Part shown: positions 14,145 through 32,352 of the stretch, piece after piece | How the letters are laid out: each line of letters begins with the position of its first letter | How positions within the stretch are numbered: the stretch's first letter is position 1 | Assembly (NCBI GenBank): GCA_964584135.1 | Contig: CAZOYN010000002.1 | Span: forward strand, 918-40,234 | Length of the DNA stretch: 39,317 nt | Source of the DNA: an uncultured Candidatus Saccharibacteria bacterium | GTDB lineage: Bacteria; Patescibacteriota; Saccharimonadia; Saccharimonadales; UBA4665 | Direction: 5' to 3' | Notes under the pieces: generated by a model | Told to the model about the DNA's origin: nothing | Databases searched by the model: none | Seen by the model: the letters and a program-made list of their open reading frames with translations, nothing else | Made by a program: the position numbers and the translations under genes

Positions 14145-14220
14145 TGGTGGAGCTAGCGAGATTCGAACTCGCGACCTTTTGCATGCCATGCAAACGCGCT
14201 ACCAACTGCGCCATAGCCCC
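14145..14220 (-). tRNA. tRNA-Ala(GGC), encoded CCA
   Basis: The reverse complement folds as GGGGCTA/TAGCTCC with the G3:U70 Ala identity pair, anticodon loop ATGGCAT, T-arm GCGAGTTCGAATCTCGC. Confidence 0.9.
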
Positions 14221-14904
14221 TTAGAGTGCTTCAAATATAATACCAGCGATCTGTTCAAGTTCAAGTTGAATATAGGTACCCGCACAGGTTACAACGCAAA
14301 CTCCTTTGTAATCCTTCTTTTTTGTTTTGTGGCCAACAGTTCGTTTATCAAAATATGACGGATAAAAATATTCTGGCTTAATTCCAGTGACCGACGACCA
14401 ATATGTAACAAGTTCAGCCGCATTCTGGTCGGCTCTATGCTGCACACGACATCGCATTTTGTCTGGTGTTACACCGTAGCAGTCCCTTAGCAGCAGAACA
14501 TATAGGCGAAGAATTTTTGGGTCCGAGCTTCCAAGTTGTGGTCCGCGTCTACTCTTCCACTTTGCACCTTCACCGAGATATAACATAGCAAGAGCCAGCG
14601 TCTTGGCATCCTTGCGCATTATAAAATTTGCAAAATCACGGTTCCTAAATTTATATGATGCAACTTTCTCATCAAATAATTGCTTATTTCTAATGACTGC
14701 CTTTTGTCTCTGTCGACCAAGCTGTTGCTTATGTCTTTCTTGGATTACTTCGATTTGAGACGGTGAAAGTTCTATATTTCTGCAAATATAACTTAATGAA
14801 CTCTTGGGGATTGTTACACCAAGTTCTTGATTAATTTCTTGAAAAGTAAAGCCGGCTTTACGCAATCTTCGAATATCTTCATAGAGGTGTACGTGAATAG
14901 TCAT
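14221..14904 (-). CDS. LAGLIDADG-like homing-endonuclease-family protein with N-terminal HTH (AT-rich, possibly selfish)
   Basis: Single LAGLIDADG-like motif LALAMLYLGEGAK. N-terminal HTH IRRLRKAGFTFQEINQELGV. Markedly lower GC than its neighbours. The stop codon directly abuts tRNA-Ala. The start is ambiguous: ATG 14904 is preferred and the longest ORF reaches 14952. Confidence 0.5.
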   Translation of the reverse strand: MTIHVHLYEDIRRLRKAGFTFQEINQELGVTIPKSSLSYICRNIELSPSQIEVIQERHKQQLGRQRQKAVIRNKQLFDEKVASYKFRNRDFANFIMRKDAKTLALAMLYLGEGAKWKSRRGPQLGSSDPKILRLYVLLLRDCYGVTPDKMRCRVQHRADQNAAELVTYWSSVTGIKPEYFYPSYFDKRTVGHKTKKKDYKGVCVVTCAGTYIQLELEQIAGIIFEAL

Positions 14905-15011
14905 ATAGAGACCATCGTACCATAGACAGGTGATATGTGCATTCATTATCACAAATTATTAAATGCCCTCAGTTCGCAGTATAATGGGCATGTAAATCAC
15001 GGAGGTTCATC

Positions 15012-15776: not shown

Positions 15777-15805
15777 TTGCCACAATCTGTTATTTGCCGT
15801 AAAAT
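15777..15805 (+). promoter_or_regulatory. Putative promoter for tRNA-Phe
   Basis: TTGCCA (15777-15782), 17-nt spacer, TAAAAT (15800-15805). The tRNA starts at 15817. Confidence 0.45.
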
Positions 15806-15816
15806 GACGGAGTTGT

Positions 15817-15892
15817 GGCTCTTTAGCTCAGTTGGTAGAGCAGAGGCCTGAAGAGCCTTGTGTCCCCAGTTCGAGTCTGGGAGGAGCCACCA
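15817..15892 (+). tRNA. tRNA-Phe(GAA), encoded CCA
   Basis: Cloverleaf GGCTCTT/AGGAGCC, anticodon stem GAGGC/GCCTT, loop CTGAAGA, T-arm CCCAGTTCGAGTCTGGG. Confidence 0.9.
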
Positions 15893-16087
15893 CTGTTAAT
15901 TACGTTGACAATTTTACAAGGCTTGTGTGCTGACGGTCGTACGTGGACGGCAGCGTTGCCGTCAAATGGCTTTCTAGCATTTTGCGTTTCATCGGTTGGG
16001 GACACAAGGCTAATAATTGCTGGCTGAGCGCTTTGCCCCGCATCTACTTGATCGATTATCTCGACCGGTGCATAATAACGAACACGT

Positions 16088-16411
16088 ATGACGAATGATG
16101 AAATGCTCGAAGCGCTCAAGGATTTTGTAGCGACAACTGTGTTGAAGGCCACTGCTGATTTACCAGCGATGAGCCAGACACTTGATCGGATACAGGTCAA
16201 GCTTGGCACGGTCGATGGTCGGCTACACAGTGTTGAGCGACAGCTGAGTGATGTTGACGGCCGACTGTCGGGCGTTGACCAGAAACTGACATCCGTCGGG
16301 GCAAAGCTCGACGAGCTGGCGTTGAAGGTTGACACGATTGCCGATGCCCACGCTGAGGATATTGACGGCCTGGATCGACGGCTGGGACAGCTCGAGCATC
16401 GGGCAGCGTGA
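16088..16411 (+). CDS. Coiled-coil protein with short periodic repeats (island cargo)
   Basis: 107 aa. Repeats of the form VDGRLHSVERQL / VDGRLSGVDQKL / VGAKLDELALKV / IDGLDRRLGQLE. The stop overlaps the next gene's GTG (GTGA). Confidence 0.55.
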   Translation: MTNDEMLEALKDFVATTVLKATADLPAMSQTLDRIQVKLGTVDGRLHSVERQLSDVDGRLSGVDQKLTSVGAKLDELALKVDTIADAHAEDIDGLDRRLGQLEHRAA

Positions 16412-17340
16412 ACCCCGGGTCTTCCGGGGCAGAGGTGAACGGCAGTGTGGATACTGACCCAGTGGTCGATCGTGCCCTGGAGATTGTCAACGAGACAGGT
16501 TTCCCGTTTCAGCACCAATGCGCCGATGCCATTGCCGGCTACCAGGACTTCGCTGTCTCGATGGAGGTGCCCTACACCTACCCGCAAACCAATGGGCCGT
16601 TGCTTGGTGTGCATGGACAAGCAGATTTGATCGCAGTTGCGCCAGCGTTGACTGAGCCAGACGCCCTGATGGTGTTCGTGGTCGAGTGCAAGCGAGCCAA
16701 CGACAAGATCAAGAACTGGTTGCTGATGACCAACCCCGTTCAGGCACCGCGTTGGCCAACGCTGTTCACTAGTCTCGATCCGGAATCCCCGCCCCAGCTG
16801 ATGAGCGTCAACCGAGCCATCAACTGGCCGGAGTTGGGCTATGAAACGGGGGCAGCGTTCGACTACTGCATAAACGGCGTTGAGGTCAATAGTGATTTTC
16901 GAGCCCTGAACCGCAATTCGGAAGACAAGCTCTACCGACCGTTGCAGCAGGTCGCACACGCCGCCATGGCAATCGGCGCGATGTACCCAAAGATTATTGA
17001 AGGTATCGACTATTTTCGTACCTTCGAGCGACCAGAACGCATCTACCTGCCGGTGGTATTGACTACAGCCCGTCTCTACAAGATTGGCTTCACGCCCGAG
17101 CTGGTGCACGACGGTGCCATCCCGACCGACGACTTCGAGCTGGGTGAGCCTCAGAAGTGGCTGACGTATGAATTCCCGCTGGCCGACTACCTCGGCGGCT
17201 CGGTAGAGCGGCCCAACGGGCCGACACATATTCCGAAACGCACGATCTTTATCGTGAACAGTGAGCATCTGGCTGAGTTCTTTAAGGCCGCTCGCTCGCC
17301 CCGCCTGCAACCAACCCCGGTTGGTCCGACCGCACTCTAA
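16408..17340 (+). CDS. PD-(D/E)xK / NERD-like nuclease-fold protein (island cargo)
   Basis: GQADLIAV...(20 aa)...FVVECKRANDK fits the D...ExK nuclease motif. Composition is balanced, unlike the antisense 510-aa ORF. Confidence 0.5.
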   Translation: MNPGSSGAEVNGSVDTDPVVDRALEIVNETGFPFQHQCADAIAGYQDFAVSMEVPYTYPQTNGPLLGVHGQADLIAVAPALTEPDALMVFVVECKRANDKIKNWLLMTNPVQAPRWPTLFTSLDPESPPQLMSVNRAINWPELGYETGAAFDYCINGVEVNSDFRALNRNSEDKLYRPLQQVAHAAMAIGAMYPKIIEGIDYFRTFERPERIYLPVVLTTARLYKIGFTPELVHDGAIPTDDFELGEPQKWLTYEFPLADYLGGSVERPNGPTHIPKRTIFIVNSEHLAEFFKAARSPRLQPTPVGPTAL

Positions 17341-17570
17341 CCCTCGCGTGGTCATCTATCCTTCTCGCAGCGTGGCAGTTGTGTAATAATTAAAATGGCT
17401 CGTTGGAGTTTGTGTTTGCAGTAATTATGTAACACATTGAAAATTCTCCAGTCATTTCGAGGTTTGACGGCTACGGCTGACGGCAACCGCCCCCAGCAGA
17501 CGCTGCGTTTCACGAGCACGAGCGAGCAGCATCACCGAGGTTGGGACCGTGTCTATGGTGGGCAGGGTCC

Positions 17571-17617
17571 GCCTGAAGAGCCTTGTGTCCCCAGTTCGAG
17601 TCTGGGAGGAGCCACCA
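17571..17617 (+). repeat. Partial tRNA-Phe copy (3' 47 nt), right-hand att-like repeat
   Basis: Identical base for base to 15846-15892. The flanking bases differ on both sides. Confidence 0.9.
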
Positions 17618-17934
17618 GAGAAGAATCGTGAATGTCTACATTGCTGGTATTCGGCGCGCATGATACCATAAGCACAATGGAGTGCTTCAATAGGCAGTAA
17701 CTATATTAGGCGTGAGACTATGCAAAGAAGATAGCTAAACAGTCCATGTGAACGACCCCGTACCTAGAGGATAAAATTAACTCTAATACAGGCACCCACA
17801 GAGATAGCTCTGAAGCCAGCAGAACGTCGAGTGACAGCTTTGAGCCTGTTGTTGGTAACCTCAATCGAAGCGGCCGCGACTTTCTCCGCAACAGTAGTGG
17901 CCCAGTCCGAGGCCTGATCCGTTCCTTAATCGTC

Positions 17935-19584
17935 TTGTTTGTTGTCACCCTGGGCTTTATTCTGTTGCATTCCTGGGCTTCTGTACCACAAGCTAGCTGC
18001 ACCAAGATCTTGAGTCCAACCACTGACTTTGCTGGCTTGGTCAATGGCCTAAGCGCTGGTGATGTTGCCTGTTTGCACGCGGGTACCTATAGTGCGCTCG
18101 GTACGACCAACTCCTGGACTAAGTCTGGTAGTTCTACAGCCCCCATCACCGTCGAAGCTGCGCCTGGTGCCACCGTCTTGGTTAAGGGCTACACCTGGCT
18201 TAACGCCAGCTATATCAACGTTTACGGCCTAACCTTTGACGGACCGACTGGCAACGTCAATGTGTCCAACACCCCTAACGGTGAACAAGATGTCCTAGCC
18301 CTGGCTGGCAATAATATCGTGCTCGACCACAGCGAAGTCCGTAATGGCCTGTGGAACGCCGGTATCTTCAGCAGCGGCAGCAACATCACTATCCAGCACT
18401 CCTATATCCACGATAACGGCTCCTGGAACAACCCCAGTGAACAACATCCGGGGGGCGCAGCAAGTAACTTAGATCAAGGCATTTACGTCGGGGAAGGCTC
18501 AAACATCAAGATCCTTAACAACGTCATTTCGCATAACCTCGCTCAAGGCTTACAGATATATCCTAGCCCTACCAACGTCTTAGTAGCAAACAACACCATT
18601 GTTAACAACGGCACGTGGTCTGTTTCGGGACACGGTGCCGGAATTGTAGAGGAAGGCAGCTCTAGCAGCGTAACAATCATAAATAACATAATTGCAAATA
18701 ATGACGGCTATGATATACATACGGCCGGTAGCTTAAGTGGTAGCGGTAATACTGCGTCGTATAACATCAGCTGGCACAATACGGCCGGAGTATGGAACGA
18801 CTCAAGCGGCATTAGCTTGGGCAATAATCTAAACGTTGACCCAAAGTTTGTCTCGGCAACAGATTTTCATCTTCAGCTTGGCAGTCCAGCTATTGACGCT
18901 GGTACCAGCACTAATGCCCCTAACACTGATTACGCTGATACTAGCCGCCCCCAGGGCAGCGGCTATGATATCGGTGCCTACGAATACCTTTCAAGCACGG
19001 GTAGCCCAGACACTACTCCACCCATTGTTAGTATCACAGCCCCAGCGCAAAATGCCACACTCAGCGGCACCGTTAGAGTGTCGGCTTCGGCTAGTGACAA
19101 TACAGGAGTGACAAAAATAGAGTTTTACCTTGATAACACACTGCAACAAAGCGGCATCGCCACTACCTACAGTTGGGATACTACTACTGCAAGTAATGCC
19201 GGGCACACCTTACTGGTTAAAGCCTATGATGCCGCAGGCAGTGTGGGTTCCAGTAACTCCCTGGCTGTGACGGTCAGTAATGCTCCGCCGCTAGCACCGT
19301 CAGCCGACACCACAGCGCCTTCTACCCCCACTAAACTGACTGCTGTTCTCATACAGGGAGGCCATAGTATCAAGTTAAGCTGGCAGGCAAGCACGGATAA
19401 TGTCGGCGTAGCGGGCTATTACATCTGGCGTAACGGTGTAAAAATAGTGGCCACAACATCTAATCCATACAGTGACTATGCAACCGATCCACGCGTAAAA
19501 TATACCTATTACGTTGTCGCATTCGACGCAGCCGGCAATCTAAGCCAGCCTTCGAGTTCAGTTATTCTAACGACAAGAAAATAA
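17935..19584 (+). CDS. Secreted right-handed beta-helix protein (polysaccharide lyase/hydrolase-like) with C-terminal Ig-like and FN3 domains
   Basis: Beta-helix rungs (ILNNVISHN, VANNTIVNNG, IINNIIANNDG), a DIGAYEY terminus, an Ig-like domain (PPIVSITAPAQNATLSGTVRVSASASDNTGVTKIEFYLD) and FN3 (LSWQASTDNVGVAGYYIWRNG). The only in-frame start is TTG 17935. The signal-like N-terminus lacks a basic n-region. Confidence 0.7.
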   Translation: MFVVTLGFILLHSWASVPQASCTKILSPTTDFAGLVNGLSAGDVACLHAGTYSALGTTNSWTKSGSSTAPITVEAAPGATVLVKGYTWLNASYINVYGLTFDGPTGNVNVSNTPNGEQDVLALAGNNIVLDHSEVRNGLWNAGIFSSGSNITIQHSYIHDNGSWNNPSEQHPGGAASNLDQGIYVGEGSNIKILNNVISHNLAQGLQIYPSPTNVLVANNTIVNNGTWSVSGHGAGIVEEGSSSSVTIINNIIANNDGYDIHTAGSLSGSGNTASYNISWHNTAGVWNDSSGISLGNNLNVDPKFVSATDFHLQLGSPAIDAGTSTNAPNTDYADTSRPQGSGYDIGAYEYLSSTGSPDTTPPIVSITAPAQNATLSGTVRVSASASDNTGVTKIEFYLDNTLQQSGIATTYSWDTTTASNAGHTLLVKAYDAAGSVGSSNSLAVTVSNAPPLAPSADTTAPSTPTKLTAVLIQGGHSIKLSWQASTDNVGVAGYYIWRNGVKIVATTSNPYSDYATDPRVKYTYYVVAFDAAGNLSQPSSSVILTTRK

Positions 19585-19747
19585 TAATCGCTGCTCCAGG
19601 CTTTTCTTTTAGTTTGTTAGTTCAATCAGGGTAGGGAGCACTGTTGTGTTTCAATAGAAGCTTGCATCTCTTCCTCCGCTTGTTCAACGGCAGTTACACC
19701 GAGCCTACGCACGACAAACTCTTGCTCGGTATGTAACACGGTTTCGG

Positions 19748-20812
19748 TCAAGTTCTTTTCAGGCGACCGCTTTTGAGGATTTGTTGGAACTCTTGGCGCT
19801 CACCAAGCCAGAAGCTAAAGGTCATCAGCACAATCGTCCCGTAGGCCGGCCAGGCCAGCCACAGCCAGTGGCCGTGCTGGGACAAAAAGCCCGGGCCGGT
19901 GGGCTGCGTGGGCAGGGCGAAGCCGCCAGTGCCGGGCACTTTGATGAGTGCCGCCAGCTGCAGGAACGCCCGCTGTCCATTGGCGTCCGTCGCTTGGATG
20001 CGCACCGGGTAGTAGCCCGATTTTTTATAGCGGTGCTCGATCTGAAGCGCCAGGTTTTTATCAAGCAGCCTGCTCGAAGTACTGCCATCACTCCAGTCCA
20101 CCAGCAGATAGAATGGTGGCCGCCCTCCCAGCACTACGACGGACCAGTTGAATGTGCTACCCGGCGCAAAGGCCTGGAAATGGAACTCGCTCGATAAGAA
20201 CAGCGGCAAGGTGCTGCCGGCAGCGGCTGGGCCGGTAACCACGATGCCCTGTGGCCGAGTCGGCCGCTGGGTGATGGGCTGGCCCGGAGATTGGGCCGGC
20301 GGCGCGTAGGTAACGTGGACGCTCGGTGTGGCCGGTCCTGGATCGTCCGTGGTGTTATAGTCTTGCGCTGTCAGCACATTCATACCTTCCATCAGCCCGG
20401 TCTGGATATCGAAGGTGCCGTTGGCGTTGCACCAGGCGGTGCCGTCAAAGGCACCATTGAGCGTCAGCTTAACGTAGGAGTTCTGCGGGCAGGTGCCGTG
20501 GACAGTAATTGGCACCGAGGTGAACACTTGGCCGTCGGTGGGATAGGTGATGACTGCCCCCTGGCTGAGTGGCGGGGCTGGTACCCGGCCATTGACGGTG
20601 TAGGAAACGGCAACCGTCTTCACCGTCCAGCCGGCAATGAATACGCCGACACACAGCAAGCCGAAGACGGTGATGGGGTGTATCAGGAATCGCCGGTGCA
20701 GGGGTTGGCGCCGCCGGATAGTACGTTTCACGCGAGCCCGCTGCCGGTGCGTGGCCGTAGCCCGCTTGGTTTTAGTAGTGCGCCGCTTGGCGCTGGGTTT
20801 TTTGGTTTTCAT
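19748..20812 (-). CDS. Surface-cluster gene 9: membrane protein anchored at both ends, with Ig/PKD-like ectodomains
   Basis: Lys/Arg-rich N-tail plus a TM helix (ITVFGLLCVGVFIAGW). PKD-like block (VDWSDGSTS...HRYKKSGYYPVRIQATDANG). C-terminal TM (AYGTIVLMTFSFWL). Confidence 0.7.
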   Translation of the reverse strand: MKTKKPSAKRRTTKTKRATATHRQRARVKRTIRRRQPLHRRFLIHPITVFGLLCVGVFIAGWTVKTVAVSYTVNGRVPAPPLSQGAVITYPTDGQVFTSVPITVHGTCPQNSYVKLTLNGAFDGTAWCNANGTFDIQTGLMEGMNVLTAQDYNTTDDPGPATPSVHVTYAPPAQSPGQPITQRPTRPQGIVVTGPAAAGSTLPLFLSSEFHFQAFAPGSTFNWSVVVLGGRPPFYLLVDWSDGSTSSRLLDKNLALQIEHRYKKSGYYPVRIQATDANGQRAFLQLAALIKVPGTGGFALPTQPTGPGFLSQHGHWLWLAWPAYGTIVLMTFSFWLGERQEFQQILKSGRLKRT

Positions 20813-20877
20813 TTAGCTGCTTATATTATTAAACAATAGCAGTAATAATGCCAGAGGGTTTGCGCGAAATAAGCCAC

Positions 20878-21381
20878 CTACTTGATAACTTGCATGGTGT
20901 TGAATAGGGTGCGCCAACTATCGGTCGATAGAGGCTTGGCGGGGCTCACAAACACCAATGTACCGCTTGTGAATACCACTGCCTCTTCCTTGCCCTTCAG
21001 CTCAGTAGGCCGCACAAGGTTGACCGTACCATTGGCCGTGCCAATACTTTTAAACTGGTTCAATTTAGTAAGCAGAGTGGGATAAAACTGCGGGATGTCG
21101 TTGAACTGGCTGGGCGCTGCCTGCTCATTAAAAGTAATTGCGTTGTCAGTGCTGTGGGCAGTAAAACTCAAAACTCCAGACTGCGGATTGTAACTGTAGT
21201 CACTGGGAGCTACCTGCAGGGGTGCAGCTGGTATATAGACTACGAAACTGACCTGTTTAGCAATCGGGCTGGGCAGAGGACTTCCAGACTGGTCTTTTAT
21301 AGATATGACGAGCACAACCAACCCAATCGCTAAAACTATGGCTACACAGATCCAAAATATACGAAAGTGTAGTATTTTCAT
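20878..21381 (-). CDS. Surface-cluster gene 8: N-terminally anchored small ectoprotein (DUF4367/LolA-like pattern)
   Basis: TM helix IFWICVAIVLAIGLVVLVISI followed by about 135 aa. The ATG directly abuts the giant gene's stop (TAGATG). Confidence 0.7.
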   Translation of the reverse strand: MKILHFRIFWICVAIVLAIGLVVLVISIKDQSGSPLPSPIAKQVSFVVYIPAAPLQVAPSDYSYNPQSGVLSFTAHSTDNAITFNEQAAPSQFNDIPQFYPTLLTKLNQFKSIGTANGTVNLVRPTELKGKEEAVVFTSGTLVFVSPAKPLSTDSWRTLFNTMQVIK

Positions 21382-24300
21382 CTATCTTATATTTATATCA
21401 ACCAGAATTGAGCCGCGGCAGGTATCGGCATTAGCCGTGGTGCTGCACTGGGTACCTGGCGCGTTGAATGGCGACTGAGCCAGGCCAAGATAGGTATAGG
21501 GGATGTCCGTTTGGGCAAGCGTAACCAGGGCTGAGGTGTTAACAAAGCCGGCAGTGGCCGTGGGTTTTACGTACGCCCCGACTGAACCGGCGGTGGCTTG
21601 CACGTACACTGGCCCAGCAACCGCAGCAAAACCTGTAATGGTATTAGTAGACGTAAAGCCATTCCATGAGACGAGCACACCAAAGAACGGGCTGGTTGTG
21701 GCGCTCGTAGGCGCTACTTCACCAATAGTTCCGTTCAGCTTCAAGGCCTGTCCAATTGCGGTTGCGGTTGCCACTACTACAGGTATCTTGGTAGAGGTGG
21801 TAAAAGGACGCGTATCATAAATTATACCAATGCCGCTGCCACCAGAGATTTCCTTTATAGTTGCCAGGCAGATAGATGGAGACCCTGGGCTCCACGTGCC
21901 AGGCACAGAGGCAGAAGTTTCCGTGATACTGGCCGTACCGAACGTCGGCTGGTTGCCGGCTGTGAAGACGCAGAGATTTTGGAAGACCGATCCGGTAGTG
22001 GTGATACCTGTAGTGTAATCAGTCGTTTGGGCGTTTATGATTTCCTTCCGGCCATAGGCGTATAGCGTACAGCCTGTCCAGCGGATACTATTAGCCACAC
22101 TGCCCATGTAAACCCTGCAGGGCCCTTTGGAGGTATCACTACCTGCCACGCCGGCTACGTCGCCGGCGTTGGAGTTTGCTCCACTATCTGGGACCACGCC
22201 AAACATTATCATCCCCAAGCCCGCTGTTGATACTAGGTCTTCCCAGTTACCAACACTATTAATGGTGTCATTAATGCAAGCTCTGATTGAGTTCGTAACG
22301 GTGTTATAGTATAGCGCGCCGTTGTTCAGAGTAGTTGAGCAGGAGCTAGAGGCATCGGTATATGTGTTGTACGAATCCAGTCCTAATACTACTTGGTTGG
22401 CGTCGCTGGTTTGTGAACCGATTTGGACTGCTTTTTTGTGATTATCAGCACTAAAAATCATATTCAGTCCCTGCCAGTCCCAAACCTGCAATATCGCTCC
22501 TTCATCTGAACTTGTATGAATTACCAGCGGGCTACTAATGATACCGCGCAGTTGGATTGCAGCTGGGTTGTAAGGTCCCACGCTGCCTCCAGAGGTTAAC
22601 TGGACAGCATCTATCCACAAGGTACCGCTGGTTGTGGTGCTGCTAATAGTCACGCTGTTGAAAGTACTGGTGGCGGTAACGGTACAGGTATAACGCTGCC
22701 AGCCGCTGCCCGATACCCACGATGTACTATTAAGCGTGCAGGTCGCTCCACCTATTGTAGGACTGACGAGTGTAACTGACGCTACCGAAGCAGTAGCAAA
22801 GAAACTAAAGGCATAGGTGCCAGTCGGCAGCGTAGTACCGAGTGCCACCGTTGCCCCAGGTGTGGTGGTGCCAAGGGTGATGGCCATGCTGCCAGTGCCT
22901 TCATAGACTTCACTGGTACTAAAAGTTCGACTAGTGGACGCGATGGTCGCATTGCCAGTGGCCGACCAGCTGGATATACCTGTCTCAAAATCTGAGTTAG
23001 GGATTAAGTTATTCGTCGTTGTATCTACCGATAATAGTGAAGAGGCGCTGGAGTTTTGCACTTGAAAAGCTGCGTTGGAATTAGAACTAGCTTCAAAGAA
23101 TGCCGGGTTTGTGACAGTACCACGTAACTGTATGGCACCGATGTCATAGGGTTGCAATACCGAACCGCTGGCGAGCATGACGGCATCGACGTATAGCGTG
23201 GCGTTCAGCGTCGAAGTAGTTATAACAATCGACGTGGTGGTACCGGTCGTTGTAACGGTGCAAGAGTAGCGCTGGAAACCAGTATTAGAAATGCTGGTTG
23301 AACTAAGGCTGCAGGTACCGCCTCCGCCCGTAAAGCTGACAGTTGAAGCCAATGTGATAGAACTATCGCTCATAGCGTAGAAACTAAAAGTATAGGTACC
23401 GGCTGAAAGCGTGGAGGTAAAACTATTTACGGTGGCTGTGGTATTGCCCGACGTAGCAGTCGTACATTTTAGGCTGGCGAGACCGTAGTAAACCCGTGAT
23501 ACGGTGGCGGTATTTTGCACACAGCTGGCACCCGTGCCGCTACCACTCCAGCCCGAGACCCCGGTTTCAAAACCAGGGTTGGTCAGCAAGTTGCTGTTCG
23601 TCGTATCCACCAGTAAAACAGGCTCACTATTGGCGTTTTGGACCTGGAAAGCGGTAGCAGAGCCGGCTGCGGCAGTATTCTGGACAGTATCGCCACTGTT
23701 ACTAATCGTTTCAGTGGTAGCGCCAGCCTGCAAAGTTATGGTGGTGCTGCTCTGAGTGTTCCCCGCGGTTATAGCCTTGTTCTGGGCACCGTTACCAATA
23801 AGAATGCTGGGTGTGGAGCCGCTGGTGGCGTCGAGCGTTAAATTGCCACTGGAAGTCGTCAGCGTAGAAGCGGCATTGCCCTGCAATGTGATGGCTCCAC
23901 CGGACACGGAGATGCCAGCGCTACCGGTGATCAGCGCGCTGAAGGTTTTGGCACCGCCGATTGTTTGGGGGCTGGCGTTTATGACGCCAGGGTGGGTGCC
24001 ATCTGCCGAGTTGAGATTGAGCACCGAACCAGTCAGCGTAGCGCCGTTAGCGTTGGCTGATCCGGCTGAATCAACTGCCCCGAGGCTAATACCTCCCCCA
24101 CAGCTGCCCCATTGCAACCCAGTCACCGTGCTGGTAGAAGCTGAGGTTGATTGCAGGCACTGGGTGCCGGTGGCACCGCTGGTTGCCCAAGACAGCGAAT
24201 AGCTGTTGGCCAGGCCCGGCATGGTCAGGGTGACCGTCCGGTTGTTTGATGTACCGTCCTGGAAGACTATGCCGCCAGTTGCCGTGGTAGAACCTAGCGT

Positions 24301-25080
24301 CAAGGCATTAACCCCTGCCAGCGTGGCCGTAATGCTACTACCGCCAGTCAAGTTATTAAGCAACGTAATGCCGGTCGCAGTGCCACCTCCGAGACTCAGG
24401 GCGCCGCTGGTAGCGGCATCCAATGTATTGGCGTGCACGGTGCCACCGGACTGGATATTGCCGGAGACATTAATGCTGCCGGACTGCTGTGAGCCGGGGC
24501 TCAGTTGCACCAGCTGGCTGACTGTCAGGCCGCCGACGCGGTTGGCGTTCAGGGCTTGGGGTACAGCCGTCAGGCGGATGAAGGGGGTCATTTCGCCGTC
24601 GCCACCACAGCCTGTGTGAAAGCTAGTTGTTGATGAAGTGACCGTACACGAGCTGGTGTTGCCGACCTGGAACGACAGCCACAAGGTGTCTTGGTTGAAG
24701 TCCACCCCGGTGTTGGTTTTGGCGCCGCAGGTACTGCCAGCCAGCGCACAGATCGAGCCCAGGTTGACGTTAAAGGTACCACTGCTGACGCTCACACCGC
24801 CGGTACTTGGCATGCCGGTGCTGCCAGAGACCAGGTAGTCCTCGGTCCACATCAGCGTGCTGCCGGTCCCGCTGCTGTTGCCGTCCTGGTAGATCTTGAA
24901 CTCCATGTCGTAGGTGCCGTCCGCCAGGTTCACGCCGCTGCTATTGACAACCTTACCCTGAAACGTTAGCTGTTGGTTGATGCCGGCGGCAGCCTGAACC
25001 GGCGCAGCTTGCGTAAGGCATGCTGCAACCAGCCCCACAACCAGTAATCCAATACCCTCAAAAGCTTTTCTGCCAGACAT
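21382..25080 (-). CDS. Surface-cluster gene 7: 1232-aa secreted fibre/adhesin-like protein with tandem CBM-like modules
   Basis: Signal peptide (GLLVVGLVAACLTQAAPVQA). N-terminal LTFQGKVVNSSGVNLADGTYDMEFKIY...TFNVNLGS...LTAVPQAL module resembling tail-fibre N-domains. Thr/Ser/Gly-rich beta repeats. Two ~180-aa repeats with an N-x-x-F-E-T-G...W motif. Cys-containing C-terminal region. Confidence 0.85.
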   Translation of the reverse strand: MSGRKAFEGIGLLVVGLVAACLTQAAPVQAAAGINQQLTFQGKVVNSSGVNLADGTYDMEFKIYQDGNSSGTGSTLMWTEDYLVSGSTGMPSTGGVSVSSGTFNVNLGSICALAGSTCGAKTNTGVDFNQDTLWLSFQVGNTSSCTVTSSTTSFHTGCGGDGEMTPFIRLTAVPQALNANRVGGLTVSQLVQLSPGSQQSGSINVSGNIQSGGTVHANTLDAATSGALSLGGGTATGITLLNNLTGGSSITATLAGVNALTLGSTTATGGIVFQDGTSNNRTVTLTMPGLANSYSLSWATSGATGTQCLQSTSASTSTVTGLQWGSCGGGISLGAVDSAGSANANGATLTGSVLNLNSADGTHPGVINASPQTIGGAKTFSALITGSAGISVSGGAITLQGNAASTLTTSSGNLTLDATSGSTPSILIGNGAQNKAITAGNTQSSTTITLQAGATTETISNSGDTVQNTAAAGSATAFQVQNANSEPVLLVDTTNSNLLTNPGFETGVSGWSGSGTGASCVQNTATVSRVYYGLASLKCTTATSGNTTATVNSFTSTLSAGTYTFSFYAMSDSSITLASTVSFTGGGGTCSLSSTSISNTGFQRYSCTVTTTGTTTSIVITTSTLNATLYVDAVMLASGSVLQPYDIGAIQLRGTVTNPAFFEASSNSNAAFQVQNSSASSLLSVDTTTNNLIPNSDFETGISSWSATGNATIASTSRTFSTSEVYEGTGSMAITLGTTTPGATVALGTTLPTGTYAFSFFATASVASVTLVSPTIGGATCTLNSTSWVSGSGWQRYTCTVTATSTFNSVTISSTTTSGTLWIDAVQLTSGGSVGPYNPAAIQLRGIISSPLVIHTSSDEGAILQVWDWQGLNMIFSADNHKKAVQIGSQTSDANQVVLGLDSYNTYTDASSSCSTTLNNGALYYNTVTNSIRACINDTINSVGNWEDLVSTAGLGMIMFGVVPDSGANSNAGDVAGVAGSDTSKGPCRVYMGSVANSIRWTGCTLYAYGRKEIINAQTTDYTTGITTTGSVFQNLCVFTAGNQPTFGTASITETSASVPGTWSPGSPSICLATIKEISGGSGIGIIYDTRPFTTSTKIPVVVATATAIGQALKLNGTIGEVAPTSATTSPFFGVLVSWNGFTSTNTITGFAAVAGPVYVQATAGSVGAYVKPTATAGFVNTSALVTLAQTDIPYTYLGLAQSPFNAPGTQCSTTANADTCRGSILVDINIR

Positions 25081-25122
25081 AGGCTACGTGTTTTGGTCCC
25101 TACCCAGACTATTACAGTGGTA

Positions 25123-25151
25123 AGTATAAGTTCTTTAAGCCAGCCAGTCAA
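25123..25151 (-). promoter_or_regulatory. Putative sigma70-type promoter in front of the giant gene
   Basis: On the minus strand: TTGACT (25151-25146), 17-nt spacer, TATACT (25128-25123), about 40 nt upstream of ATG 25080. Confidence 0.45.
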
Positions 25152-25156
25152 TCTGC

Positions 25157-26092
25157 TTACGGCTTAAATCGCCGGGCAACGTACCAAGCCGTTGCCAGCA
25201 GTATCGGCGGCAGTACGAAAAGCCACGGGTTGATGTACAGGAAAGCGACGTTATAGGTTGAGAATTTAGCCGAATTATCCGGCCGGTACCGTATGCGCAC
25301 ATGGTACTCGTGAGGCCACCAGGGGCGTCCCAACTTAACCAGTGGTGTTGGCAGCAGCCGGATGCTACCAGGCAACACCAGGGCTGAATCAGGGTTAATT
25401 ACCCCTGTGGCTATCGGCGATGAGGCTTTGCCGCCGTCAATTGTGACCGTACCCCGCGGGGTTGTCTGGGTATTGCCATCATCCTTAAAAAACAAGTTTA
25501 GGCTGGACGGGATGGAGTACTGTACACCAGTCACTTGGGGTGGTGGCATACTCAGGTCTTGGCTGCCGCCACCAGCGGTCGTGACAAACACTAAAGAGGT
25601 CAGCACTTGGTTGATACTCACCTTATTGCCCGAGCCGCTGGGGCCGGTTTTAAGCAATTGGTAAGTTACGGCGCCGTAATGGCCGCCGGGCGCCAGGCCC
25701 AATAGGCTAAACAAGTGGATGGTGACCTTGGCCGAAGCACCGGCGTCTAGGCCTAACTGCTCGGTACCTAAGCGCACCCAATTAGCCAAGCCGTGGCTTT
25801 GTTCCAAGTTGGTCGCCTGTTCGCCTAAAAAGGCGATGCCGCCAGATTCATTCAGCGTCTTGAAGTCGGCAAAACCGAGCTTGATTTGGACGGGGGAAGC
25901 GGTATTATTGGTGACTTGGACCGTAAAATTAGCTTGGTCCTGGCCGTCCACCAGGTGGAGCTGCTCTAAGACTGGCGCCACCGAGACACCGCTCAGCTTG
26001 GTAGCTGGGGTTGGCCCAGCCGCTCCAGCCGAACCAGCATACATGGCCAGCAGCGCCACGACCACCAGCAAACTGGCTAGACGCTTACGCAT
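25157..26092 (-). CDS. Surface-cluster gene 6: divergent third paralogue of the double beta-sandwich, C-terminally TM-anchored proteins
   Basis: Start MRKRLASLLVVVALLAMYAGSAGA (signal peptide) at 26092 overlaps the upstream stop (TGATG). The track's extra 107 N-terminal residues lie inside the upstream gene. C-terminal TM plus RRFKP. Confidence 0.7.
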   Translation of the reverse strand: MRKRLASLLVVVALLAMYAGSAGAAGPTPATKLSGVSVAPVLEQLHLVDGQDQANFTVQVTNNTASPVQIKLGFADFKTLNESGGIAFLGEQATNLEQSHGLANWVRLGTEQLGLDAGASAKVTIHLFSLLGLAPGGHYGAVTYQLLKTGPSGSGNKVSINQVLTSLVFVTTAGGGSQDLSMPPPQVTGVQYSIPSSLNLFFKDDGNTQTTPRGTVTIDGGKASSPIATGVINPDSALVLPGSIRLLPTPLVKLGRPWWPHEYHVRIRYRPDNSAKFSTYNVAFLYINPWLFVLPPILLATAWYVARRFKP

Positions 26093-27129
26093 CAGGTCCG
26101 CCTCCATCGTTTGACGCGCTGGTACAGGTTGCGGCCTAAGGCGTACAACCCACCCAAAGCCAGCACAGCCACGAGCAGCATAAGTAATAGCAATTTCCAG
26201 GGCAGCACCCAGAACGACAGTTCGCCCTCTATGGGGATGTCTCGGGTACCGTCGTTGTAGGCTAATAGCATACGGGCATAATACCGGCCAATGCGTAGTT
26301 TGCTCAAGTTGGTACCGCTCCAATCCAGTTGCCGCAGGGGTATACTGCTTTTGTCGGCAATGGTCTGGCCGTCCACCTGTTTTATCTGATAGCGTGGAAA
26401 GCCATCTTCCCACAGCACCGTGAAAACCCGGTTGCTCCCCGGCAGGATGTTGCCCTGCGCCTGATTAATTTCCAGTGTGGCGATGGGGTCTTTACCGTTC
26501 CGGCTAATAAAGATGTCGCCCGCTGGCACGGCATGGACATTCCCGCTGTTGTGGACGGTGATGTCAAAGGAAGCCGGCAGGTAATCGTACAGTTTTTTGG
26601 AAGCGCTAAAACTAACCACGTTCAGCGTCCGCTTTTCGCCGGGGGCGTTAACGTCCAACAGCACCAAGGTGGCCACGGCACCGGTGACGACATTGTGCTG
26701 GCCGGTGGCGGTGGGTTTGGCGCCGGCTTCGCTAAAGACTACGGCGTAGTAATAGCCGAAAGCGGCCGTCTTGGGTACCTGTATGGTCATGGTGACGGTC
26801 TGCCAGACGTTCGGCTCAGCCACGAACGAAGACTCCGAAAAACTGACCCAGCCTACCGACTCGTCACCGGCCGCCGGTTGGATAATCTGCGGCTTGCCGC
26901 TGGTGCCATCGGCTTTGAATTTCATTAGCGTCACTTTAACCGTCACCGCTTGGCTGCCGGTGTTTTCGACTTTGATCGGCGTCGAGGTGCTGGCTCCCGG
27001 CTTGATGGACAAGCTAATCGGCAGCGGCGAGGTGGTCAGGTTAAAGTCCGCGGCGGCGGCCATGGCGGGGTCAATAAGTGGTAGCAGGCAAGCCAGGGTG
27101 ATGAGCACCACTGAGAAACGGCGCATCAT
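26092..27129 (-). CDS. Surface-cluster gene 5: signal peptide + two beta-sandwich-like domains + C-terminal TM anchor (DUF916/DUF3324-like architecture)
   Basis: AADFNLTTSPLPISLSIKPG...VENTGSQAVTVKV...FGYYYAVVFSE...VHNSGNVHAVPAGDIFIS...LSKLRIGRYYA, C-terminal TM plus a basic tail. ATGA overlap with the upstream gene. Confidence 0.8.
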   Translation of the reverse strand: MMRRFSVVLITLACLLPLIDPAMAAAADFNLTTSPLPISLSIKPGASTSTPIKVENTGSQAVTVKVTLMKFKADGTSGKPQIIQPAAGDESVGWVSFSESSFVAEPNVWQTVTMTIQVPKTAAFGYYYAVVFSEAGAKPTATGQHNVVTGAVATLVLLDVNAPGEKRTLNVVSFSASKKLYDYLPASFDITVHNSGNVHAVPAGDIFISRNGKDPIATLEINQAQGNILPGSNRVFTVLWEDGFPRYQIKQVDGQTIADKSSIPLRQLDWSGTNLSKLRIGRYYARMLLAYNDGTRDIPIEGELSFWVLPWKLLLLMLLVAVLALGGLYALGRNLYQRVKRWRRT

Positions 27130-28187
27130 GTCTGCTGCCTGTACTTTCGTTTATTGCGCCAGCGCATCAACAGGTACACCACTACCGCTGGTACGGTCGG
27201 GATGAGTATGGCGAACATGATCAGCCGCCAGGGTATGACCCAGAACGACAGCTCGCCCTCCACCGGCACGTCGCGGCTGCCATCATTGTAGGTCAGCAGT
27301 AAATGGGCGTAGTAATGGCCAATGCGCAGTTTACTCAAGTTGAGTCCGTCCCAGCTCAGTACCCGCTCCGGAAGACCGCCTGGGTCGGAGATAATTTGGC
27401 CATTGACCCGTTTTGTCTGGTAGGCTGGAAAGCCATCTGACCAACTGGCGGTGAACAACCGGCTGCTGCTTGGTAAAATATTTCCCCCCGAGGCATTGAC
27501 TGCCAGGTGGGCTATATCGTGTTGCTTATCCCGACTAATAAAGATGTCGCCCGACGGGACGGCGTGGACATTACCACTGTTGTGAACGACCACGCTAAAA
27601 TCGGCCGGCAGGAACTCATAGATTTTCTTGGCCGAGACGTAGCTGGTAACACTGAGCGTCCGCTTTTCGCCGGGGGCGTTGACGTCCAACAGCACCAGCG
27701 AGGCCACCGCGCCATGTACGGTGTTGTGCTGGCGCGAGATAGCTGTCTGGCCGGCATCATTCTCGCTAAAGACCACCGCGTAATAGTAGCCAAAAGCCGC
27801 TTCTTTAGGTGGCCGGATGGTCATGGTAACGGTCTGCCAGACATTCGGCTCGGCCTGGAATGAGGTTTCGGAAAAACTGACCCAACTGATATAAGTGTCA
27901 CGCGGCGTGGGGTCAACGATTTCCGGCTTGCCACTGGTGCCATCGGCCTTGAAGGTAAGCAAGCTTACCTTAACGCCCACGGTTTGCGACCCGGTATTCT
28001 GGACTTTCAGAGCCGTGCTGACGGTGCCGCCGGGCTTGACGGATAAGCTAATCGGCAGCGGTGAAACGGTCAGGTTGAAGTCCGCCGCCCAAGCAGCTAA
28101 CGGACTGGCAAGCGTGGTAAAAGCAAGGGCCAAGACTATTACTGCAGCCACCGCCCCGCTGGTCGAGGACCCCTTTAATACAAGCAT
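27126..28187 (-). CDS. Surface-cluster gene 4: paralogue of gene 5 (same architecture)
   Basis: By eye, well over half of residues are identical to 26092-27129, with long near-identical nucleotide runs. ATG 28187 is preferred (TATGCT 6 nt upstream); GTG 28202 is also possible. Confidence 0.8.
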   Translation of the reverse strand: MLVLKGSSTSGAVAAVIVLALAFTTLASPLAAWAADFNLTVSPLPISLSVKPGGTVSTALKVQNTGSQTVGVKVSLLTFKADGTSGKPEIVDPTPRDTYISWVSFSETSFQAEPNVWQTVTMTIRPPKEAAFGYYYAVVFSENDAGQTAISRQHNTVHGAVASLVLLDVNAPGEKRTLSVTSYVSAKKIYEFLPADFSVVVHNSGNVHAVPSGDIFISRDKQHDIAHLAVNASGGNILPSSSRLFTASWSDGFPAYQTKRVNGQIISDPGGLPERVLSWDGLNLSKLRIGHYYAHLLLTYNDGSRDVPVEGELSFWVIPWRLIMFAILIPTVPAVVVYLLMRWRNKRKYRQQT

Positions 28188-28233
28188 GTAATTAGCATAC
28201 ACTAGCCTGTCGTTTACCAGGGCTTATAGAGGT

Positions 28234-29289
28234 TTAGAAGTTGCCGGCGCCAATGACCGTGATGGTATCGGTGTAATCGTTAGCTGCCGGTGTTAGGGCT
28301 GATATAGCCGAACTTTCCTTGACGACGAAGGACGCGCTACTGGCTGTTCCGTTGGAAGAGATGATTTGGCGAATAGTCGAGTCCAGTCCAGAACCTTGGC
28401 CAGCTCCAGCTGTACCGCCCGAGCCATTGCCGTAGGCGTTTGAAGCGGTGGTGGTACCAGCGCCCGAACCCTGGGTAATGCTCGTGATGCCCATAACGTA
28501 ACCTTCGGTGCCGGAACTGAGTGTGGCGTTAGTCCCCGGAGTGGTAGAGGCGATGGTGTGGCTGGCCGCGGCTGAGTTTAGGCCAGTATTGCTATCCTTG
28601 GCCCAGGCTATCCAGCCGTTTTGGGCGTTGGTATTAACGGTGATGGTACAACCACTGGTGCTTACCACGGAACTAGCCGACAGGTTGGCGGTAAAGTTGT
28701 CGGTGTTACTGGCACAGCCGCTAATCACGAAGTTGAAGGTTGGCGGTACGCTGGCGTTAACGACTATCTGGTCGTTGGATACGGTGCGTACGGCAACGGT
28801 GGTTGAATCGCTACCGGCCGTGACTGTTGGGTGGTATTCACCGGCGGTCGCATCAGTAACCGCTGTCGCGCTGGTCAAGTCAACACAGTAAGCCGTGGTA
28901 GCTGCTAAGGCCGTCACGCTGCTTATTGTCACAGTGCTACCAGAACCAGCCGCCGTGATTGAGCCGGGTAGGGCGGTCGCCCCTGTTTCCGAAGCGCAGG
29001 TAGCTGAAGATACTGTCTGGGTAGTATTGACCGCGCCGCTGGAGCCGGTCCAGGTAGTGCTATCGGCACCGTTGAAGTTAATGGCTACCGATGTGGCGCC
29101 GGCCCCGACGGTCTTAAAGACTAAGCGGAAGCTAGTACCTTGCCCAGCCGCCATGCGGTTCAATCGGATATAGGTGTTGGTTAAGGTCGCGGCGGAAACG
29201 GGAGCCAGGGACAATGCCAGCAAATCGGCGGTTCCCAATAGAGAAGCTAGCACCAAAGCTATGGAGCGGTAGGAAAGCTTTAATTTCAT
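28234..29289 (-). CDS. Surface-cluster gene 3: secreted Thr/Ser/Gly/Ala-rich protein with a WxL-domain-like C-terminal module
   Basis: Signal peptide (...LSLAPVSA/ATL). No TM anchor or LPXTG seen. The C-terminal ~170 aa are alignable with the C-terminus of 29383-30414. Ends TPAANDYTDTITVIGAGNF. Confidence 0.8.
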   Translation of the reverse strand: MKLKLSYRSIALVLASLLGTADLLALSLAPVSAATLTNTYIRLNRMAAGQGTSFRLVFKTVGAGATSVAINFNGADSTTWTGSSGAVNTTQTVSSATCASETGATALPGSITAAGSGSTVTISSVTALAATTAYCVDLTSATAVTDATAGEYHPTVTAGSDSTTVAVRTVSNDQIVVNASVPPTFNFVISGCASNTDNFTANLSASSVVSTSGCTITVNTNAQNGWIAWAKDSNTGLNSAAASHTIASTTPGTNATLSSGTEGYVMGITSITQGSGAGTTTASNAYGNGSGGTAGAGQGSGLDSTIRQIISSNGTASSASFVVKESSAISALTPAANDYTDTITVIGAGNF

Positions 29290-29330
29290 AATATGTTTGT
29301 AAACCTTTGGTTTATTTTATAACTGGGTTA

Positions 29331-29360
29331 AGCATAAACTTTTTTAATCAGGGCTGTCAA
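29331..29360 (-). promoter_or_regulatory. Putative sigma70-type promoter for 28234-29289
   Basis: On the minus strand: TTGACA (29360-29355), 18-nt spacer, TATGCT (29336-29331), about 40 nt upstream of ATG 29289. Confidence 0.45.
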
Positions 29361-29382
29361 TGAGCAGCCTGTGGATAAACCC

Positions 29383-30414: not shown

Positions 30415-30424
30415 ACCTACTATA

Positions 30425-31342: not shown

Positions 31343-31381
31343 CTTGCAATTTATTACATATATGGGCTAATCTATACAGGT

Positions 31382-32185
31382 ATGAGAGGTTCAAGACTTC
31401 CAAGTGCCGTCCCTTTGCCAGAAGTGCCCCGTTACACCGAAGAGGTCGTTTTTGGTAACTTAGGATTGCCCCAAGGTTTTGATGACGAGCGCCTCCTGGT
31501 TAACCTGCGTGGTTTACAACGCGTACAAGCCGTAGCCGGGCTCGGCACTATTAGCATTGTTGGCACTACTGGAGAAAGTTATCAGACCGACCTCAACATT
31601 AGCGGTTGGGATTCCCAAGGTACAGCTGTCAGTAGCGGCGTCGCCAAGCGCCAGAAGCAGCCGCTTGCACACGGCAATCTTCGTTTCCCAAACCCTCAAA
31701 GCACACTTTTTGGCCTGCCTGACCTAACCATCAAGGTTAATAACTCAGAAGTAGACGAACGTATTAGTGAAGGTGACTTTAAAAAAGGTTTGCTGGATCC
31801 CTACGCCCGAGCTAAATACTTAAATGGGGCGATTAAGTCTGGGTTAGCCGAGGCGAGCCGGGACGCTAACATTGATTGGATGAAGGCTAAACTTACCTTT
31901 CGTTACTATGGCCTATTCGGAGGCGGCATTACCTTACTTGGGGGCAGCCCCGATCGGGTATTCACGGCGGCAGCCGTATTCGGCCCGGTCATTGTAAACG
32001 TAGCCATATTAAGAGAAGTAACCTTCAGAAATATTGGCCAAAAAGCTGAAGATAAAGACATAAAATCAGACTTCTCAATTTGGAAGCAATTTCGACAGAG
32101 TCTGGCGGTTGGCCTAGCAATTGATAGGTGGGTTGCAGGAGCTGGCCTAGCCAAAGCCACCAAAGTTATTAGGGCGCGACGCTAA
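31382..32185 (+). CDS. Hypothetical protein (hydrophobic C-terminal segments)
   Basis: ATG 31382 avoids overlap with the divergent gene. TTGCAA-N18-TAATCT ends 8 nt before the ATG. No recognisable motif. Confidence 0.6.
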   Translation: MRGSRLPSAVPLPEVPRYTEEVVFGNLGLPQGFDDERLLVNLRGLQRVQAVAGLGTISIVGTTGESYQTDLNISGWDSQGTAVSSGVAKRQKQPLAHGNLRFPNPQSTLFGLPDLTIKVNNSEVDERISEGDFKKGLLDPYARAKYLNGAIKSGLAEASRDANIDWMKAKLTFRYYGLFGGGITLLGGSPDRVFTAAAVFGPVIVNVAILREVTFRNIGQKAEDKDIKSDFSIWKQFRQSLAVGLAIDRWVAGAGLAKATKVIRARR

Positions 32186-32262: not shown

Positions 32263-32275
32263 TTAACGCTGTTAC

Positions 32276-32352
32276 GCGAGTGTAGCTCAGTTGTTTAGAG
32301 CGCTTCCTTGCCAAGGAAGAGGTCGAGAGTTAGAGTCTCTTCACTCGCACCA
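32276..32352 (+). tRNA. tRNA-Gly(GCC), encoded CCA, atypical D-loop and T-loop
   Basis: Acceptor GCGAGTG/CACTCGC, anticodon stem CTTCC/GGAAG, loop TTGCCAA, T-arm GAGAG-TTAGAGT-CTCTT, D-loop AGTTGTTTA, discriminator A73. Confidence 0.85.

Follow-up and report, generated by a model that had tools for sequence, protein, structure and literature searches.

A small integrase-less islet with a predicted nuclease at the tRNA-Phe gene of a Candidatus Saccharibacteria genome

How did a 1.7-kb segment of DNA come to lie between two identical copies of a tRNA 3' end when it encodes no recombinase? The question arises at the tRNA-Phe gene in a stretch of 39,317 nt (the window; positions 918-40,234, forward strand, of contig CAZOYN010000002.1) from an uncultured Candidatus Saccharibacteria bacterium. 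The assembly (GCA_964584135.1) is a low-coverage metagenome bin of 935,738 bp in 95 contigs, with 89.8% completeness and 5.6% contamination. The intact tRNA-Phe gene is followed by 1,678 bp, here called the islet, which holds two open reading frames (ORFs) with relatives, ORF A and ORF B, and zero recombinases, and then by an exact copy of the 3' part of the tRNA. We regard it as about an even call that the islet is a relic, resembling a cis-mobilisable element (CIME), of tyrosine-integrase integration at the anticodon-loop subsite of tRNA-Phe, and that it carries a defence-type nuclease.

The tRNA-Phe duplication and the enclosed islet

The two repeat copies lie at 15846-15892 and 17571-17617, are 100% identical over 47 nt, share the same orientation and start 1,725 nt apart. 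The repeated block covers the tRNA from position 30, which belongs to the 5' side of the anticodon stem and precedes the anticodon by 4 nt, to the encoded CCA. The initial annotation had located this duplication correctly to the base, and the attL/attR-type footprint that it recognised is real: an intact tRNA is followed by a direct-orientation 3' fragment whose boundary lies in the anticodon stem. A 29-nt part of the repeat, allowing up to 3 mismatches, was found at exactly 2 sites in the window and at 0 sites in 100 shuffles. The search of the whole assembly with tRNA-Phe returned both repeat sites and an unrelated 88% tRNA-like match on contig C61, and nothing else. The assembly contained no third copy of the 47-mer, neither the islet nor its ends recurred elsewhere in the genome, and the window had no further degenerate tRNA-Phe copy. 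The G+C content of the islet (55.8%) differed only slightly from that of the genome (52.1%), which is a weak signal. The features of the locus are as follows.

15777-15805: promoter-like match before tRNA-Phe
15817..15892, plus strand: tRNA-Phe(GAA), intact, with encoded CCA (ARAGORN; Rfam tRNA 65.9 bits)
15846..15892, plus strand: copy 1 of the 47-nt repeat (attL-like), tRNA positions 30-76 (repeat search)
15893..16087, plus strand: left non-coding arm, 48% G+C
15946-15963: hairpin GACGGCAGCGTTGCCGTC in the left arm
15997..16011, minus strand: inverted exact copy of tRNA positions 38-52, AGCCTTGTGTCCCCA (repeat pairs I4 and I5)
16012-16040: stretch AATAATTG..GCTGAGCGCTTTGCCCC of the left arm, which aligns with the 'class 2' mini-insertion of genome G313 described below
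16048-16076: promoter-like site ahead of ORF A
16088..16411, plus strand: ORF A, 107 aa, coiled-coil small protein
16408..17340, plus strand: ORF B, predicted nuclease, 310 aa from GTG 16408 or 297 aa from GTG 16447
17341..17570, plus strand: right non-coding arm, 53% G+C, no ORF with relatives, no terminal inverted repeat
17571..17617, plus strand: copy 2 of the 47-nt repeat (attR-like), the displaced tRNA 3' fragment (repeat search)
32276..32352, plus strand: tRNA-Gly(GCC) (ARAGORN), 16,383 nt downstream of tRNA-Phe

The inverted 15-mer of the left arm scored best on the minus strand, at 30, and shuffled sequences reached at most 28. The motif GACGGCARC was found at 3 sites in the two arms (including 15946-15963 and 17479-17487), once as the perfect hairpin GACGGCAGCGTTGCCGTC. 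It had 5 matches in the window against 0.77 expected, which weakly suggests possible protein-binding sites. The sequence GCTGACGG was also considered as an arm-type site and rejected, as its 8 matches against 1.2 expected are spread over the whole window and are not specific to the islet.

Assembly support was assessed in four runs of one soil study using public k=31 (Logan) contigs, a word length that cannot bridge the 47-nt repeat. In run X1, exact contigs covered 15865-16498 and 17035-17600, i.e. both junctions between islet and repeat, so both islet ends really abut tRNA-Phe sequence in some real molecule; stretches left uncovered in the four runs are uninformative. Read depths of the islet were close to those of the flanks in X1 (islet: 6.3, 7.0 and 7.6; flanks: 5.6 and 6.8), X2 (islet: 6.0, 3.9 and 3.0; flanks: 5.9, 4.8 and 5.3) and X3 (islet: 2.3; flank: 2.8). 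The tRNA-Phe itself reached depths in the thousands, compared to about 6 on the flanks, because its sequence is common to many organisms, and it forms a hub in the assembly graph. These depths fit one islet copy per genome; at k=31 an integrated islet, an empty site accompanied by a circle, and a mis-join at the tRNA hub all look alike.

The ORF, Pfam, PADLOC, PHROGs and NCBIfam scans confirmed the earlier statement that the islet contains no recombinase and only two genes. ORF A belongs to a family of about 91-111 aa in which the N-terminus, MN(D/E)EMIxDLKQFIAATV, and the C-terminus are conserved and the middle consists of variable heptad- or hendecad-like repeats; Pfam, PADLOC, PHROGs and NCBIfam scans of ORF A gave only sub-threshold coiled-coil noise. 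A word-based search with ORF A returned only ORF A itself. Exhaustive HMMER searching yielded 397 hits at E<=0.001, mostly long repetitive proteins, with several end-to-end matches to proteins of 95-101 aa. At E<=1e-5 the family profile matched 112 of the order's 401 genomes, often as full-length ORFs of 91-111 aa. In all 9 loci examined (9/9), the relatives had unrelated housekeeping neighbours with no adjoining nuclease, which indicates that the family usually stands alone; ORF A is a member of a small-protein family native to the lineage.

A predicted nuclease of an unnamed family

Homologues of ORF B (n = 25) align only from about residue 14-20 onward, and a GTG at 16447 lies 9 nt downstream of GAGGTG, so that B probably starts at 16447. 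This start (297 aa) is more likely than GTG 16408. The initial annotation had called the two genes coupled, and this description holds for the longest form of ORF B, which overlaps the stop codon of A by 4 nt. The overlap may be unreal, as B may start 36 nt past the end of A. No match to ORF B was found in Pfam, PADLOC, PHROGs or NCBIfam. A search of 5.8 billion proteins revealed 27 others with 35-51% identity, nearly all of them 287-301 aa long, and in an alignment of 26 sequences the residues E53, D73, E93 and K95 were invariant. The AlphaFold model of ORF B (mean predicted local distance difference test score 88.9; predicted template modelling score 0.88) places this E..D..ExK set on its first three long strands (E49-58, E68-79 and E86-95).

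Comparison of the ORF B profile with PDB sequences gave just NEMO coiled-coil noise (E ~0.03), and Foldseek against the PDB returned nothing at E<=0.001, with AF1548, AddB, SduA and Cas4 among its weak top rows. The structure was further compared with 48,161 chains by VIA-align 2. The best match was McrC (6hz4_M; Z 8.8, root-mean-square deviation 3.5 over 140 residues), followed by Upx (Z 8.2), Can2 (7.6), Cdn1 (7.6), and VC1899 and AF1548 (both 7.2); further rows included Bse634I, FokI, SduA and Hjc. Nearly all of the top 30 rows were restriction-endonuclease-like nucleases, at Z values (8.8-5.0) that, according to the tool's own note, commonly arise by chance arrangement. Taken together, the motif and the fold suggest that ORF B is likely a PD-(D/E)xK-type nuclease of an unnamed family. 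ORF B shares the E..D..ExK motif with McrC, the Can2/Card1 nuclease domains, AF1548/VC1899 and type II enzymes, and its predicted core superposes on theirs at the Z values given above. In contrast to McrC- and Can2-type systems, no McrB-like GTPase, CARF domain or methylase stands beside ORF B in the window, and among the nucleases with a restriction-endonuclease fold no sequence-level family includes it.

ORF B was not found in any of 40 relatives of the host, all of different genera (0/40). Genome records with a relative of ORF B were those of Streptomyces caeruleatus, Actinophytocola oryzae (apparently frameshifted), a Frankia strain and a metagenome-assembled genome of Peribacteria, and 18 further loci came from metagenomes, including soil. 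A viral origin of the islet was considered and rejected: the sole viral-contig match for B was 25% identical, and no viral contig matched A. To describe the neighbourhoods of the ORF B relatives, neighbours were scanned at 15 loci, and homologues of A and tRNA genes were checked at 23. An N6-adenine methylase (N6_Mtase) lay immediately upstream of the relative in 2 of the 15 loci (L034 and L036), and L034 also had an HsdS-like gene downstream and LexA upstream. At locus L024, PvuII, a SMODS cyclase and an N4/N6 methylase were located within 2.5 kb. Other neighbours were Hypoth_Ymh, an IrrE-like peptidase, DUF5753/helix-turn-helix proteins, DDE transposases and a CHAP-domain protein. A tRNA gene was present at only 1 of the 23 loci, more than 6 kb distant. 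These neighbourhoods depict the ORF B family as a patchily distributed, predicted nuclease in defence or mobile-DNA surroundings of other phyla.

A conserved two-gene A-B system was rejected, as tblastn with A gave 0 hits (E<=1) in the 23 B loci and the relatives of A lie in unrelated contexts; it is only in this window that B sits next to A and at tRNA-Phe. The motif, the modelled fold and the neighbourhoods point to a defence role for ORF B. The islet contains no cognate DNA methyltransferase such as a restriction-modification system would include. If the predicted nuclease is active with no methylase beside it, it must depend on DNA modification, be under regulation, or have its methylase encoded at another place in the genome.

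tRNA-Phe and its surroundings in the order

The initial annotation had suggested looking in the genome for a recombinase with a matching att core. A Xer-like and a large serine recombinase were found, neither of them linked to a tRNA-Phe-like core. PF00589 had a single match in the genome, a 305-aa protein on contig 26 amid housekeeping genes, which scored 257 bits with XerC, 250 with XerD and 231 with archaeal XerA (above the XerA model cut-off) and is Xer-like. PF00239 likewise had a single match, a 547-aa large serine recombinase on contig 12 (8534-10177; L005:1465-3108) whose best NCBIfam match, XisF, was below cut-off. The end of its coding sequence overlaps a 43-nt fragment that matches the 3' part of tRNA-Asn at 87.5% identity; recombinase and fragment together are probably a separate element integrated at tRNA-Asn and split by assembly. 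The tRNA-Asn gene is located at the start of contig 60. As the genome is 89.8% complete, a helper integrase could be missing. The islet itself was not found in other genomes or metagenomes at the DNA or close-protein level.

To place the locus in its ancestral context, the spacer downstream of tRNA-Phe was compared in 11 loci from 10 relatives that have the SPFH gene preceding tRNA-Phe in the window. The gap between tRNA-Phe and tRNA-Gly(GCC) measured 43 nt in G015, 10 in G006, 41 in G023 and 25 in G021, and 170 nt in G014 (an unpublished genome on which no conclusion depends). In G007 it was 1,195 nt and held one secreted-protein gene with no repeat. No DNA downstream of tRNA-Phe was conserved at the DNA level among the 40 relatives. 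In the window, the 14.6 kb at 17618-32275 encode large proteins, mostly without a Pfam family (a beta-helix/Big_7/fn3 protein, a 1,232-aa protein and several of about 350 aa), with surface-protein genes among them. This stretch is absent from the position in relatives, and parts of it (19600-32275) match a cluster elsewhere in G010. With tRNA-Gly 16.4 kb off, the DNA behind copy 2 differs from the ancestral flank, and the spacer as a whole is a variable region. The empty-site check in the initial annotation had taken the sequence from 17618 onward as the original flank, an assumption that the distance to the usual neighbour tRNA-Gly contradicts.

Two further observations concern tRNA genes of the window. 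An AbiU2-type HEPN protein (Pfam E 2.6e-15; 32529-33212) directly follows tRNA-Gly(GCC), as a second defence-type gene beside a tRNA of the window. A 243-aa ORF (14221-14952, minus strand) ends exactly at the 5' end of tRNA-Ala(GGC) (14145-14220) in a patch of low G+C (36-44%), with no Pfam or NCBIfam match.

The 401 genomes of the order were then searched with a 24-nt pattern of the tRNA-Phe 3' end, allowing at most 1 mismatch. The pattern was present in 232 of them and in more than one copy in 15. Close pairs, 122-185 bp apart and with a partial second copy, occurred in 12 of the 400 other genomes; the second copies in G159 and G197 and a third copy in G414 were whole tRNA-Phe genes on other contigs. 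These results indicate that tRNA-Phe is an insertion hot spot in the order. Several classes of partial copy other than that of the window start at structural boundaries, namely the anticodon arm, the T stem and the T loop. As a third kind of short insertion, G218 (L059:1500-1705) has about 110 bp ending in a 21-nt tRNA 3' copy and a shared AAG.

Eight of the 12 close pairs ('class 1') have spacings of 176-185 bp; six were read, and G326 and G359 (unpublished, and again without bearing on any conclusion) were assigned by spacing only. The class 1 segment is about 135 nt long, and its last part consists of the T arm of tRNA-Phe, the 3' strand of the acceptor stem and CCA. These eight, of twelve class 1 and class 2 insertions in all, seem to be members of a tRNA-adjacent repeat, termed R1, which is structured, dispersed and about 130 nt long. 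Copies of it were located as follows.

L042:2076-2215
L044:2108-2246
L046:923-1059
L047:2064-2199
L048:2105-2238
L055:1995-2133
further copies in L077-L091

RNAalifold on six R1 sequences gave a structure of 47 pairs, of which 23 are backed by compensatory changes in both partners. R1 has a conserved core of about 85 nt with three hairpins, flanked by variable hairpins. No Rfam family matched it at E<=1. A covariance model of R1 matched strongly (best E<=1.5e-11) in 81 of 151 genomes from the order. A single genome of 0.6-1 Mb contained up to 17 matches (E<=0.001), and many matches were located at contig ends. Of 15 loci examined, 14 had an R1 copy within 52 nt of a tRNA gene; these tRNAs covered nine amino-acid types, in divergent, convergent or tandem arrangement. 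No R1 was found in three genomes sampled from the family of the window. The islet was rejected as an R1 copy, as the only hits in its genome were the tRNA T arm and its copy (27 and 25.7 bits). R1 was likewise rejected as a relic of a TnpB omega-RNA or an IS110 bridge-RNA, with PF07282 and PF01548 each found in 0 of 5 R1-rich genomes. Literature searches on tRNA-associated repeats and noncoding RNA of Patescibacteria and Saccharibacteria returned no description of R1, and a search for integrase-linked islands at tRNA genes in Saccharibacteria returned papers on other organisms only.

The remaining four pairs ('class 2'; G191, G381, G313 and G403) have spacings of 122-134 bp and are single-copy and rare. 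They were located as follows.

L043:2009-2142
L045 (minus strand)
L056, L057 (minus strand)

Each class 2 insertion comprises a terminator, a hairpin in which an inverted copy of the anticodon arm pairs with a direct copy, an A/T-rich linker and a degenerate tRNA copy. The degenerate copy reaches from about position 36 to CCA and then continues into the flank, by 7-9 nt in G191, G381 and G313 and by only 3 nt in G403. G313 and G403 share a common flank past the second copy and differ inside it; G088, of the same family as both, has no insertion, and G218 has the third kind described above. The class 2 hairpin has a loop that includes the codon UUC and is the complement of the anticodon loop of tRNA-Phe.

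The left arm of the islet resembles these mini-insertions, a likeness to DNA from another family of the order that the initial annotation had missed. Its inverted 15-mer is followed by AATAATTGCTGGCTGAGCGCTTTGCCCC, which aligns with AATAATTGTTGCTGAGGGCTCCGTCCC of G313 at a score of 29, reached by 0 of 500 shuffles. The alignment to G381 was marginal (19 of 500 shuffles), and those to G191 and G403 were not significant. By sequence likeness, an earlier mini-insertion may account for the left 190 bp; A, B and the perfect 47-mer would then lie on its distal side, and the islet would be an accretion.

Origin of the islet

In the work on Islander (PMC4383910), integration restores the tRNA gene while the displaced fragment marks the far end of the island, and an intact tRNA with a displaced 3' fragment is the signature used to map islands. 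The same work names the anticodon loop, the T loop and the T/acceptor junction as crossover subsites, with 2,083 of 3,919 Islander islands anticodon-centred. By this route, a circular element bearing a tRNA-Phe copy from the anticodon stem to CCA would have been recombined with the chromosomal tRNA-Phe by a tyrosine integrase, with the crossover in or beside the anticodon loop. The copy of the element would complete the working tRNA (15846-15892), and the displaced original end would be the fragment at 17571-17617. The integrase of the element would have been lost, leaving as cargo the nuclease B preceded by the coiled-coil protein A. This cargo looks horizontally acquired, given that B was not found in the 40 relatives of the host and that its distant database relatives occur in Streptomyces, Actinophytocola, Frankia, a Peribacteria genome and soil metagenomes. 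The islet is probably immobile now unless an integrase arrives from outside.

Several known systems resemble the islet in part. Like Islander-type islands as described there, it has a tRNA and a same-orientation fragment on one replicon with an anticodon-arm boundary; unlike them, it has no integrase (a non-Xer tyrosine recombinase) inside, which Islander filters for, its insert is only 1.7 kb, and the flank beyond its fragment is not the conserved one. CIMEs keep attL and attR, lack integration and transfer genes and are mobilised in cis by related elements, according to PMC5704250. The islet shares this composition with the streptococcal CIMEs treated there and possibly their tandem position with another decayed element. 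It differs in that no parental integrative and conjugative or mobilisable element was found for it, since no relative of the islet carries a recombinase and no long-range tRNA-Phe duplicate occurs in the 400 genomes of the order, and in that conjugative elements were unseen in the small-genome host. Small size, non-autonomy and flanking repeats are common to the islet, miniature inverted-repeat transposable elements (MITEs) and phage satellites. However, the islet repeats are 47-nt direct copies of the target gene, with no inverted pair linking the ends, and P4/PICI-like satellites have integrase, replication, primase and capsid-hijacking genes that the islet lacks. Of the alternatives offered by the initial annotation, a decayed island fits best. 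The proposal of a minimal element mobilised in trans found no support, with no cognate integrase, third att copy or integrase-bearing relative. The comparison with MITEs failed on the absence of terminal inverted repeats, and that with satellites on the absence of integrase, primase and capsid-redirecting genes in the Pfam, PADLOC and PHROGs scans.

A number of results weigh against a CIME-like relic of integration. The islet has no integrase, and the assembly holds only the Xer-like tyrosine recombinase and the serine recombinase tied to tRNA-Asn; no integrase-carrying relative of the islet was found in any genome, metagenome or viral collection searched. A distant pair of tRNA-Phe copies on one contig occurred in 0 of the 400 other genomes. 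Convincing arm-type repeats were not found, GACGGCARC being weak with 3 of its 5 window matches in the arms. The DNA past copy 2 is not the ancestral flank and continues for 14.6 kb with no further tRNA-Phe-like copy, and at 1.7 kb the islet is far smaller than usual islands. An older left arm would separate the tRNA from the cargo, in the opposite order to simple accretion, and would require integration into an older attR, a route described for tandem elements in PMC5704250. The integrated arrangement comes from the original assembly alone.

The absence of an integrase and of arm-type repeats would also suit a scar of rearrangement or transfer, in which the 47-nt copy is what remains of another tRNA-Phe gene brought in with adjacent DNA, e.g. 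17618-32275, by illegitimate or short-homology joining, so that the repeat would not mark the ends of one element. Such a scar would be consistent with the ancestral neighbour tRNA-Gly lying 16.4 kb away, with the clustering of parts of 19600-32275 elsewhere in G010, and with the G007 secreted-protein gene, which occupies the same spacer without any repeat. The islet is also a mosaic, its left arm being like a mini-insertion of the order, A native (112 of 401 genomes) and B foreign. However, the 17-nt anticodon arm would be hit by a random breakpoint in only about 1 of 5 cases, the copy is exact over 47 nt, direct, and ends precisely at CCA as att fragments do, and several other classes of partial 3' copies at tRNA-Phe in the order begin at structural boundaries. 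We therefore consider a scar unlikely, though a serious competitor. The low-coverage origin of the 95-contig bin, with its 5.6% contamination, raises instead the prospect of an assembly artefact, i.e. a foreign or circular 1.7-kb segment bordered by tRNA-Phe and threaded into the contig at the shared tRNA hub. The depth of the tRNA (thousands against about 6 on the flanks) makes it such a hub, the k=31 unitigs break within the repeat with none bridging it, and the G+C content of the islet is slightly above that of its flanks. Against this, both islet ends abut tRNA-Phe in independent Logan contigs, and the depths of islet and flanks agree in three runs. A 1.7-kb circle without a replication gene is unlikely at chromosomal copy number, and assemblers with a final k above 47 would need real spanning k-mers (the assembler is not identified). 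An artefact appears decidedly improbable.

The perfection of both att-like copies, as if recent or in use, could instead reflect a still-active, satellite-like or CIME-like minimal element moved by an integrase from a phage, another island or the host Xer. Short integrase-less insertions at tRNA-Phe in 12 of 400 other genomes, and the mobilisation of CIMEs in cis by related elements (PMC5704250), agree with such activity. Yet the genome has no candidate integrase and no second copy of the islet or its ends, the islet was not recovered from other genomes or metagenomes at the DNA or close-protein level, and its depth is not above that of the chromosome; we give continuing activity very little credence. 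With similarly slight confidence, the islet may be viewed as the first cargo-bearing member of the set of integrase-less micro-insertions (the 122-185-bp tRNA-Phe insertions and R1), moved by unrecognised machinery. This would be, e.g., the single Xer-type recombinase of the host or an RNA- or structure-guided enzyme, and not a classical island integrase. If so, the partial tRNA copy left by one micro-insertion would be a harmless landing pad for the next.

As a CIME-like relic, the islet would be a textbook-style att footprint without an integrase, and would illustrate the gain of defence genes at tRNA sites by very small genomes (0.5-1.8 Mb across the order). Integrase-less islets of this kind are dropped by island finders that demand an integrase and so go unnoticed. 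ORF B, as judged from its sequence and model, would define an unnamed nuclease family found across Actinobacteria, candidate-phyla bacteria and soil metagenomes in defence-type contexts. The tRNA-Phe gene of this order repeatedly bears short insertions ending in partial tRNA copies, and these recurrent micro-insertions, together with the widespread, covarying and Rfam-less repeat R1, are more unusual than the islet itself.

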